NCBI GenBank assembly: GCA_025999335.1
Contig: AP024681.1
Location: 322,565 to 386,564 of the forward strand
Origin: Candidatus Parcubacteria bacterium
Lineage (GTDB): Bacteria > Patescibacteriota > Minisyncoccia > UBA6257 > HR35
Reading direction: 5' to 3'
Length of the DNA stretch: 64,000 bases
Positions 40,309-40,983 of the stretch are shown here, piece by piece. How positions within the stretch are numbered: position 1 is the stretch's first letter; the number at the start of each line of letters is the position of its first letter. A program made the position numbers and the translations under genes. The notes below the pieces were generated by a model. It had not been told where the DNA came from, searched no databases, and saw only the letters and a list, made by a program, of their open reading frames with translations.

Positions 40309-40983
40309 TTAATATTCTGTTTTGCGAGTTTTTAAAATAAGTTTTATTATATAAATAAAACCAGCAATTACTATCCCGCCAGTCGCTATTAACCAGATAA
40401 GTGCATAGTAAAATAAATAATCAAGATATTTATAAACTATCTTCGGAACAACGACAATAGAAGCAAAAAATTCTACAACTACCGAAAGAATTAAAAATAT
40501 TAAACTAAATATTATACGGATAATAAAGGAACGTTTTATTTTTTTTAAAAAATCATATTTTTTATAGAAACCATAAAAGCTTAATTTTATAAATTTTATA
40601 AATATAAATGCAACTCCTATTACTACGATAAATAATATAAAAAATGGGATAGGAAAATAAGAATTAGAATATAATGCTTTCTCGATCATTGCCTGAACCA
40701 TCAATATGACATAAAATATCCCTATAATAAACAGTGATAATATAACTGGCATAAAAAACCCAAATAAATAAGCAGTTCTTGTTTCTTTTGTTTGATTTGA
40801 GGATTCTGTTTCCTCTAATTGCTGTTTTTTAACTAAATTACTTAAATTTCTGCCTGATAAGTGAGAAATAGTTAAAGTAGATATTAAACACGAACAACAA
40901 CAACAGCAACAAGCACCACAAGTCGGCGTTGACGAACTAACTCTTATTTTTTCATTATCAAACTGGGATATGAGTCGGAGCAT
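40309..40983 (-). CDS. poly-Cys (SLS-like) precursor-like N-terminus fused to a polytopic membrane domain, paralog B
   Basis: 224 aa: MLRLISQFDNEKIRVSSSTP-TCGACCCCCCSC-LISTL..., then about 5 predicted TM helices. First gene pair of the operon that contains YcaO and SagB. Confidence 0.5.
   Translation of the reverse strand: MLRLISQFDNEKIRVSSSTPTCGACCCCCCSCLISTLTISHLSGRNLSNLVKKQQLEETESSNQTKETRTAYLFGFFMPVILSLFIIGIFYVILMVQAMIEKALYSNSYFPIPFFILFIVVIGVAFIFIKFIKLSFYGFYKKYDFLKKIKRSFIIRIIFSLIFLILSVVVEFFASIVVVPKIVYKYLDYLFYYALIWLIATGGIVIAGFIYIIKLILKTRKTEY
40917..40983 (-). repeat. 67-nt perfect direct repeat, copy 2 (5' end of substrate gene B)
   Basis: Identical to 41681-41747: CACAAGTCGGCGTTGACGAACTAACTCTTATTTTTTCATTATCAAACTGGGATATGAGTCGGAGCAT on the plus strand. 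Confidence 0.85.

Follow-up and report, generated by a model that had tools for sequence, protein, structure and literature searches.

The locus described here raises the question of why two neighbouring genes that have diverged over most of their length should begin with exactly the same nucleotides. The genes, g2 and g1, lie in tandem on the minus strand of a 64,000-nucleotide (nt) stretch of a Candidatus Parcubacteria contig (AP024681.1 of assembly GCA_025999335.1, positions 322,565 to 386,564), which is called the window below. The upstream paralog g2 encodes 240 amino acids (aa; 41025-41747), the downstream paralog g1 encodes 224 aa (40309-40983), and the spacer between them is 41 nt. Both open reading frames (ORFs) comprise a 21-residue leader, MLRLISQFDNEKIRVSSSTPT, which is the same in g2 and in g1, followed by a Cys-rich core, a post-core helix and a membrane domain, which is multi-pass in g2 and homologous to that of g1 with its four transmembrane (TM) helices. 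They stand beside genes for a putative azole synthetase, of which they appear to be the substrates. The identity of their 5' ends, which extends over 69 nt, appears to be best explained by gene conversion and not by constraint at the nucleotide level. Taken as a whole, gene conversion between tandem substrate paralogs that give a membrane-tethered product is the account of the locus that we consider the best and, on balance, probable.

When the two genes were aligned along their full length and compared in 60-nt windows, nucleotide identity was 100% at the start, about 78-85% up to nt 180 and about 70% up to nt 270. It was 33-55% in mid-gene, with an island of 78% at nt 391-450, and 50-70% near the 3' end. 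At the protein level the leaders are identical in 21 of 21 residues, the cores in 10 of 13, the post-core segments in 19 of 24 and the membrane domains in 62 of 159 (39%), in agreement with the initial annotation, which had described the membrane domains as only moderately identical. The gradient is thus real, and the pair is not a uniform recent duplication, which would have left high identity throughout. The identical tract occupies 40915-40983 in g1 and 41679-41747 in g2, in both cases on the minus strand, and covers the ATG and codons 1-23; we regard it as a presumed gene-conversion tract. It had been reported before as 67 perfect nucleotides (40917-40983 and 41681-41747), and this is true, with identity reaching 2 nt further. 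The edges are sharp on both sides. The base directly 5' of the ATG is already different and the 5' untranslated regions (UTRs) of g1 and g2 are unrelated, and at the other end the tract stops at codon 24, the point from which the Cys-codon region shows a 6-nt indel and several mismatches. The tract contains 0 differences in 69 nt, compared with 37 in 150 nt in the next conserved stretch (Fisher p = 1.6e-7). It is the sole exact direct repeat of at least 25 nt in the window, and a search of the window allowing up to 3 mismatches found no copies beyond these two (0 expected in shuffled sequence).

A tract that is perfectly identical and begins exactly at the ATG could be an RNA or DNA element kept base for base, for example an initiation structure, a target of the small-RNA or riboswitch-like kind, or a protein-binding site. 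The region shows no stable RNA structure (z = +1.75) and no Rfam match. Little structure at the start of a gene is known to be required for initiation and would fit such an element, while the lack of a stable fold and of an Rfam match counts against it. The stronger evidence comes from an ortholog, the single substrate gene found in L001-L004, which are Logan assemblies of four sequencing runs. In the L001 lineage the same cluster is present, about 88% identical in its nucleotides, with one substrate gene. The ortholog keeps the leader peptide of g1 and g2 except for T21S, yet its leader DNA differs from theirs at 8 of 66 nt, and six of the codons are changed synonymously (CTC/CTT, CGA/AGG, CTC/CTA, AGA/AGG, TCG/TCA, and TGT/TGC). 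Among codons for the same amino acid, 6 of 21 differ between g1 and the ortholog in the leader and 8 of 40 in the 50 post-core codons, and the corresponding counts between window and ortholog are 44 of 239 in the SagC-like gene (the C gene) and 48 of 220 in the SagB-type gene (the B gene). Because the leader codons differ in the same way as those of the C and B genes, synonymous sites in the leader drift at an ordinary rate between species. With nearly all of the substitutions in these 66 nt synonymous and at the rate of the C and B genes, a constraint on the nucleotides themselves is very unlikely to be the cause of the perfect identity.

The comparison between the paralogs gives a different result from that with the ortholog. 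Between g1 and g2, 0 of 22 same-amino-acid codons differ in the leader, against 9 of 33 in the next 50 conserved codons, and this synonymous deficit is significant both relative to their own post-core region (Fisher p = 0.006) and relative to the ortholog comparison (p = 0.009). The relationships among the three genes also change at the edge of the tract. Outside it, g1 differs from L001 at 23 of 150 nt and from g2 at 37 of 150 nt, whereas inside it g1 equals g2 and both are 8 nt away from L001. Such incongruence inside versus outside a tract is the classical signature of gene conversion as read from sequence. When identity to 38 outgroup members of the family was compared, g2 was not found to evolve faster than g1 (0.251 versus 0.243). 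Since g1 is nearer to L001 than to g2 outside the tract, and since g2 shows no rate acceleration, the duplication probably predates the split from the L001 lineage, and that lineage probably lost g2.

These data also bear on whether a young duplication of the whole gene could suffice without any conversion, the leader being kept by purifying selection and chance and the rest having diverged under relaxed or positive selection. The single copy in L001 is compatible with a duplication in the lineage of the window only, and membrane domains in this family do diverge fast. Purifying selection on the peptide, however, gives no protection to synonymous sites, at which 0/22 contrasts with 9/33 within one pair of genes (p = 0.006). 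Outside the tract, fewer differences separate g1 from the ortholog than from g2, and g2 is not accelerated relative to the outgroups. We consider a young duplication without conversion improbable.

Based on these observations, we suggest that g1 and g2 would have arisen by duplication and then diverged over most of both genes. A recent non-reciprocal recombination event would then have copied at least 69 nt from one paralog onto the other, erasing all synonymous differences, and its bounds would be the non-homologous 5' UTRs upstream and the indel-rich Cys-codon region downstream. Selection at the protein level would act on top of this, and the near invariance of leader and core across the family would follow from the need of one enzyme set to recognise both leaders. 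Constraint and conversion had been put forward in the initial annotation as alternatives; both seem to apply, the former to the leader and core as protein and the latter to the identity of the nucleotides. By itself, the 69-nt identity is a minor, textbook example of tandem paralogs evolving in concert.

Here, we need to consider that the identical 5' ends could have been produced during assembly, by collapse of a repeat or by consensus polishing. The contig of L013 (GCA_041640215.1, contig JBEQAS010000001.1, 1-130, compared with window 40900-41793) starts with 46 nt that match the g2 upstream sequence exactly and continues through the 69-nt repeat into the body of g1, with g2 missing, and it is at such repeats that assemblers take ambiguous paths. 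Against this, the window resolves both copies with unique flanks and diverged bodies, a repeat of 69 nt is shorter than ordinary reads, and L013 independently shows the junction of g2 upstream sequence with the repeat and that of the repeat with the g1 body, with the same 69 nt. An artefact is hardly credible as the source of the identity. The L013 junction itself reflects either a true deletion variant or the path that an assembler took across the repeat, as the contig ends there. L001 likewise contains a single gene with a g1-type body behind g2-type upstream sequence, adjoining a gene of the TIGR00375 family. The arrangements in L001 and L013 are what deletion of g2 by recombination between the repeat copies would leave, and the repeat may be recombinogenic. 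A repeat of this kind can lead assemblers astray, and one copy may be lost through it.

The two proteins have the same parts in the same order. The core of g1, CGACCCCCCSC (40888-40920, minus strand), contains nine Cys, six of them consecutive, and that of g2, CGPCACCSCCCSC (41646-41684, minus strand), also contains nine; the six consecutive Cys of the one and the sequence of the other are as the initial annotation had given them, and both cores are predicted sites of heterocyclisation. An imperfect (TGT)6.7 array lies inside the g1 core (40893-40912, minus strand; Tandem Repeats Finder score 33). It had been proposed that slippage in such codon runs may make core length variable. The array is present in g1 and not in g2, and the number of Cys is nine in g1, g2 and the ortholog and stays within 7-10 across all 111 family members; core length is also the same in L013, an independent assembly with 99.85% identity. 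Slippage-driven variation in core length is therefore not borne out. The post-core segment LISTLTISHLSGRNLSNLVKKQQL (40816-40887, minus strand, codons 33-56) is 79% identical between the paralogs and consists of a Ser/Thr-rich hydrophobic stretch and the start of a charged linker. The g2 protein is identical to P0003, a hypothetical protein from a metagenome-assembled genome (MAG) of Candidatus Parcubacteria.

An AlphaFold2 model of g1, built from an alignment of 41 sequences, had a pLDDT of 75.5 and contained a helix at residues 28-57, four long hydrophobic helices (64-105, 113-143, 151-183, and 187-223) and a short one at 145-148. Lys and Arg number 5 in the linker, 9 in loop 2 and 4 in the C-terminal tail, compared with 1 in loop 1 and 2 in loop 3. 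Since these residues are skewed to the linker, loop 2 and the C-terminal tail, their distribution suggests an N-in/C-in topology that would place the leader and core in the cytoplasm, on the side of the enzymes. The membrane domains of g1 and g2 are homologous and align throughout, and they share a conserved Gly in TM1, a conserved Glu in TM3 and a lineage-specific insert, the cytoplasmic loop KFIKLSFYGFYKKYDFLK (KFIKLS.YGF..KYDF; 40543-40596, minus strand), which forms a second island of high identity and is found only in g1, g2 and the L001 ortholog. This does not fit the earlier idea that a leader-and-core cassette had been shuffled onto different membrane modules. Nor were extra copies of the cassette on other modules found, either in the window or in two scans of metagenome contigs, one using a protein profile and the other a degenerate 47-nt pattern of the cassette, both of which were empty. 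A separate identification of the membrane domain as a CPBP-type protease or a SagF-like protein was tried and dropped, as it had no Pfam or NCBIfam support and only the one Gly and the one Glu are conserved.

To what family do these proteins belong? A first sequence search returned just g1, g2 and one ortholog, whereas the YcaO protein encoded beside them has many relatives at 40-69% identity. A substrate gene of the same design adjoins the YcaO gene in all 10 loci examined, namely the window, L001, L006 (Patescibacteria), L007 (Clostridiales), L008 (a JGI metagenome), L009 (Aromatoleum tolulyticum), L010 (Bordetella genomosp. 4), L011 (Bacilli), L012 (Clostridia) and L015 (a high-GC metagenome contig); L013, a near-identical strain of the window, was left out of this count. 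The conserved unit is the substrate gene adjoining YcaO, usually with SagC-like and SagB genes as well, and no recurrent protease or ABC exporter gene was seen in the loci examined. A profile search then collected 41 proteins, and an exhaustive HMMER scan of 1.84 billion representative sequences gave 89 clusters at 50% identity, all matched from the N-terminus, mostly from residue 1. The family reaches across Patescibacteria, Firmicutes and Proteobacteria and includes high-GC members with no assigned taxon. A scan of genome contigs added one locus only, L005 (Clostridiales MAG WRJV01000331.1, 10001-10207), where a gene at the contig end, 3' of a gene for a membrane/Sel1-like protein, encodes the same leader and an eight-Cys run after TCGA (MVKLISQFDNEKSKLTVATPTCGACCCCCCCC); its C-terminus and the enzymes lie off the contig. 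No second paralog copy was found near P0177 on its short contig, and the neighbour there is an unrelated membrane protein that looks cation-efflux-like by eye.

The N-terminal motif recurs in all 111 family sequences, and across the loci examined its consensus is M-[ILV]-[RK]-L-[VI]-[ST]-Q-F-D-x4-[RK]-x-S-x-A-T-P-T-C-G-x-C7-9. Behind it come a hydrophobic segment rich in Ser and Thr, a linker with many charges and three or four TM helices. The 41-sequence alignment shows no variation at L4, Q7, F8 and D9, and conservation reaches at least 90% at R14, S16, T19, P20, T21, C22 and most of the core Cys, so the leader and core are under very strong constraint at the protein level. The post-core segment is recognisable across the family (consensus IVTT..SS.ITARNLG), although less strictly conserved than leader and core, and the conserved residues of the membrane domain are G75 in TM1 and E171 in TM3. 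The number of Cys is 7-10 in the 111 sequences and 8-9 in 91 of them, and in 102 of the 111 the first Cys is spaced 15 residues from the conserved Gln. Because Cys count and Gln-Cys spacing are conserved, core length is not free to vary. In proteobacterial cores most Cys are replaced by Ser or Thr (STTTTCSCC and STSTTCSSC), residues that can still be heterocyclised and are poor metal ligands. The median length is 176 aa. Lengths below 120 aa occur in only four of the 111 members, of which one is a fragment confirmed to lie at a contig end and the other three stop in the linker or in a TM helix.

The family is covered by neither a Pfam nor an NCBIfam model. Sub-threshold matches to the streptolysin S model TIGR03602 occur in 13 of the 41 members (best E = 4.4e-4); this model scores 17.2 bits against g1, with a cut-off of 35 (E = 0.0036), and does not match g2. 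Some members carry additions to this plan. Those of L011 (4189-5004) and P0144 have a C-terminal tail that is long and acidic and closes with a motif resembling a zinc ribbon (CPKCG...C..C), and Pfam zf-tcix was matched by one of the 41 members scanned. From the acidic zinc-ribbon tails it follows that the membrane domain can be extended by cytoplasmic modules. In L009 (2921-3559) and L010 (2782-3429) a gene of the PAP2_3 family, a membrane phosphatase family by its Pfam name, lies divergently beside the SagC-like gene, and this gene is absent from the loci of the candidate phyla radiation (CPR) and of Firmicutes.

The enzyme genes beside g1 and g2 are all on the minus strand. The first encodes a SagC-like partner protein of 275 aa with a CxxC...CxxC motif (39362-40189), the second a YcaO cyclodehydratase of 418 aa that ends in ...KLPHPLG (37978-39234), and the third an FMN dehydrogenase of the SagB type with a nitroreductase fold, 240 aa in length (37251-37973). 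The SagC-like protein matches TIGR03882 (E = 2.9e-6; 27.6 bits, cut-off 36.9) and TIGR03603 (E = 3.2e-4; 20.5 bits, cut-off 187.65), both below the curated cut-offs. TIGR03882, named 'TOMM precursor leader peptide-binding protein' (TOMM, thiazole/oxazole-modified microcin), is matched by 9 of 9 C proteins, those of the window and of eight orthologs, at best with E = 7e-12, and the CxxC...CxxC motif is conserved across the aligned C proteins. When the C protein was modelled with AlphaFold from its sequence alone, the pLDDT was 43, too poor to judge whether it contains a RiPP recognition element (RRE; RiPP, ribosomally synthesised and post-translationally modified peptide) or an E1-like fold.

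The YcaO protein matches PF02624 (E = 2.2e-37; 129.6 bits, cut-off 25.7) and, below the cut-off of 219.25, the SagD family TIGR03604 (E = 4.8e-54; 183.7 bits). A C-terminal PxPxP motif is typical of azoline-forming YcaO proteins. The window protein ends with PxP only, and PxPxP occurs in 66 of 120 homologs, while 117 of these 120 (P0004-P0123) end in N-x-x-P-H-P-L-G or a near variant, which could serve as a signature for finding clusters with membrane substrates. The SagB-type protein matches PF00881 (E = 2.1e-14; 54.5 bits, cut-off 23.5) and TIGR03605 (66.1 bits, below the cut-off of 78.4), and its sequence matches in the PDB include the oxidase BmdC (8e-12) and McbC (1.7e-7). Because of these YcaO, nitroreductase-fold and TIGR03882 matches we regard the trio as an azole synthetase of the SagBCD type, with g1 and g2 as its probable substrates; no Cys-rich ORFs other than g1 and g2 were found beside the enzyme genes. 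The sag operon is known to carry, in addition, protease, immunity and export genes of the sagE/F and sagGHI type, and none of these was found in the window operon or in the related loci.

Based on these assignments, we suggest a course of modification in which the leader, core and linker face the cytoplasm and the SagC-like protein would bind the leader. The YcaO protein would cyclodehydrate the contiguous Cys to thiazolines, and the SagB protein would oxidise the thiazolines to thiazoles. The product would stay an integral membrane protein with a rigid N-terminal polythiazole segment at the inner face of the membrane. Because neither a protease nor an exporter has been conserved along with the cassette and conservation does extend to the membrane domain, retention seems the likeliest fate of the product, and we would give a retained, membrane-tethered product close to an even chance. 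The conserved intramembrane Glu suggests that the helical bundle does more than anchor. If the trio does modify the fused membrane protein, RiPP chemistry would here build a permanent, tethered polythiazole and not a diffusible peptide. It is possible, though somewhat short of even odds, that the locus represents an unrecognised class of modification, in which a dedicated RiPP-type azole synthetase has an integral membrane protein as its sole substrate and the product serves the cell that makes it. Tentatively, and with about the same reserve, the product could then be pictured as some 8-9 contiguous thiazoles forming a rigid conjugated rod that faces the cytoplasm and stands permanently on a bundle of three or four TM helices with a buried Glu. 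If this is true, the tethered polythiazole would act in the producing cell, for example in metal or redox handling or in membrane remodelling, and would not be a secreted antibiotic.

The same arrangement could instead encode a released toxin. The N-terminal 45 or so residues would then be a streptolysin S-like protoxin that is modified, cut from the membrane domain and directed at other cells. The weak TIGR03602 matches in 13 of the 41 members and the layout, a run of adjacent Cys and then a hydrophobic stretch rich in Ser and Thr as is generally known for SagA, point in this direction, and clusters for LAPs (linear peptides that contain azol(in)es) in CPR genomes are interpreted as antibiotic clusters in the available portion of the report on them (PMC7298704). 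Release, however, would need two cleavages, at the leader and at the linker, and a protease or ABC exporter is conserved in none of the loci examined. The membrane domain has conserved residues of its own (G75 and E171), the suggested N-in topology would hold the core in the cytoplasm, and all TIGR03602 scores are far under the cut-off (17 versus 35 bits). We consider a released toxin unlikely, and equally unlikely that the membrane domain is its built-in carrier, exporter or immunity module.

A further alternative is that the Cys run is not heterocyclised at all and forms a thiolate site for a metal or Fe-S cluster, or a site of S-acylation, with the YcaO enzymes acting elsewhere. Poly-Cys tracts do bind soft metals, and the enzyme scores lie below the curated family cut-offs. 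On the other side, the substrate gene adjoins YcaO in 10 of 10 loci from at least three phyla and one high-GC locus, the highly conserved leader stands at a fixed spacing, with 15 residues from the Gln to the first Cys in 102 of 111 members, and the Ser- and Thr-rich proteobacterial cores (STTTTCSCC and STSTTCSSC) would be heterocyclisable but poor at binding metal. A thiolate or acylation site is therefore a distinctly improbable use of the core, and heterocyclisation remains the use that we favour.

When we compared the system with known ones, one of the closest resemblances was to streptolysin S-type (TOMM) clusters, in which SagA is accompanied by SagBCD, such as those for clostridiolysin S and listeriolysin S. 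As in these, SagC-like, YcaO and SagB proteins are encoded as a discrete trio, and as in SagA-type substrates, a short N-terminal leader is followed by a contiguous Cys run and a Ser/Thr-rich hydrophobic stretch. Two precursor genes also occur in some streptolysin S-type clusters (PMC4603692). The sequences of the present family in addition show a weak echo of TIGR03602. The differences are nevertheless considerable. First, SagA is a peptide of about 50 aa, whereas the substrate in this family is an integral membrane protein of 150-280 aa. Second, the SagE-like CPBP protease, SagF and the SagGHI exporter of the sag clusters are missing here. Third, the leader motif of the family, M-x-R-L-x-S-QFD, is distinct, and none of the Sag-family models is matched at or above its cut-off. 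Finally, TOMM substrates are by definition short peptides that undergo leader removal and export, and g1 and g2, with 224 and 240 aa and predicted TM helices, do not conform to that definition.

LAP clusters in which YcaO stands beside a nitroreductase-type dehydrogenase are described for Parcubacteria and Microgenomates genomes in the available part of Sharrar et al. 2020 (PMC7298704), and the present cluster shares this adjacency with the CPR clusters treated there. The example in that part of the report (PMC7298704) has a putative precursor of 84 aa and a peptidase, and a membrane-fused substrate is not mentioned in it. YcaO chemistry on the backbone of a full-length protein is known from the thioglycine that YcaO-TfuA installs in McrA and from an engineered cyclodehydratase and dehydrogenase pair (MicD-F/ArtGox), which installs azol(in)es inside folded proteins and for which a heterocycle in a linker requires no release of a peptide (PMC9052802). 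The present system would resemble both in this respect. The natural cases such as McrA involve thioamidation at a single site and no leader, however, whereas here there are a leader, 8-9 contiguous sites and a dehydrogenase, and the whole reads as RiPP logic applied to a membrane protein.

Precursor families of prochlorosins and cyanobactins have conserved leaders and variable cores. Like the paralogs in those families, g1 and g2 have uniform leader-encoding 5' ends under one enzyme set; unlike them, the core is conserved too, it is the fused membrane domain that diverges, and there are two copies with a single 69-nt tract. In bufferins and other MNIO-modified small proteins, as the available text of one source describes them, Cys are modified in a ribosomal protein larger than a typical RiPP, and the product chelates excess copper (PMC12452194). 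On the strength of that text, the likeness lies in a modified Cys protein that serves the producing cell, and the difference in the enzyme, which belongs to the MNIO superfamily and not to YcaO (PMC12452194). Full-text literature searches, in which subscription journals were thinly covered, found no description of a natural membrane-fused TOMM or LAP substrate, and the family, as membrane-anchored substrates of YcaO enzymes, is apparently undescribed. Genome mining for short precursors beside YcaO would tend to miss such a substrate. As the family has cultured members in Aromatoleum tolulyticum and Bordetella genomosp. 4, the prediction is directly testable. Ultra-small CPR genomes have kept the cassette, as have Firmicutes, Proteobacteria and lineages of high GC content, and that 4.5 kb should be held on to in a CPR genome with a largest contig of about 0.68 Mb suggests a function of some interest.

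Several points weigh against the account given here. First, the incongruence test depends on one ortholog lineage (L001-L004) and on small counts (22 codons), and the relative-rate comparison uses poorly alignable TM regions. Second, the edge of the tract lies exactly at the ATG, where a duplication breakpoint could also fit; when the g2-g1 spacer was compared with the downstream flank of g1, no homology was found, with a score no better than that of shuffled sequences, a result that is uninformative either way on a breakpoint. Third, none of the three enzymes (the C, D and B proteins) reaches the curated TIGRFAM cut-off of its family (SagC, SagD or SagB). Fourth, it is possible that a protease or exporter encoded in trans could still release the peptide. 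Finally, frameshifts in L001, L013 and L015 suggest that the cluster is dispensable or in decay, or that the assemblies contain errors. In L001 the substrate gene is frameshifted (910-1652; 168 + 75 aa), with the same truncated product of 168 aa in all four runs (L001-L004), and its YcaO gene is split (2754-4009; 91 + 285 aa). L013 has a 1-nt deletion in its SagC-like gene (window 40093). The locus of L015 (5519-6953) is degraded, with a split YcaO gene, a truncated dehydrogenase gene, an IS481 element and no recognisable C gene.

The remainder of the window is that of a bacterial chromosome, with eight tRNAs and an RNase P RNA. A hairpin at 41810-41839, with a 10-bp stem (AGGCGAGCAT / ATGTTCGCCT) and a 10-nt loop flanked by an A-run and a T-run, is terminator-like on both strands; it lies between the divergent g2 and the gene of the TIGR00375 family and is not conserved in L001. 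A scan for promoters and terminators gave 26 sites, against 27 expected in AT-rich DNA, and was hence uninformative. A tRNA-Ile with anticodon UAU was identified by ARAGORN at 20609-20682, and the opposite strand there scored just above the threshold of the Rfam model Plastid-ycf2, almost certainly a false positive. Directly downstream of the cluster, past a tRNA-Pro, is an ORF of 2410 aa (29647-36879) with an N-terminal hydrophobic stretch, a long Thr-rich stretch of low complexity and C-terminal repeats, and the corresponding genes of L013 match PG_binding_1, Big_5 and CarboxypepD_reg.

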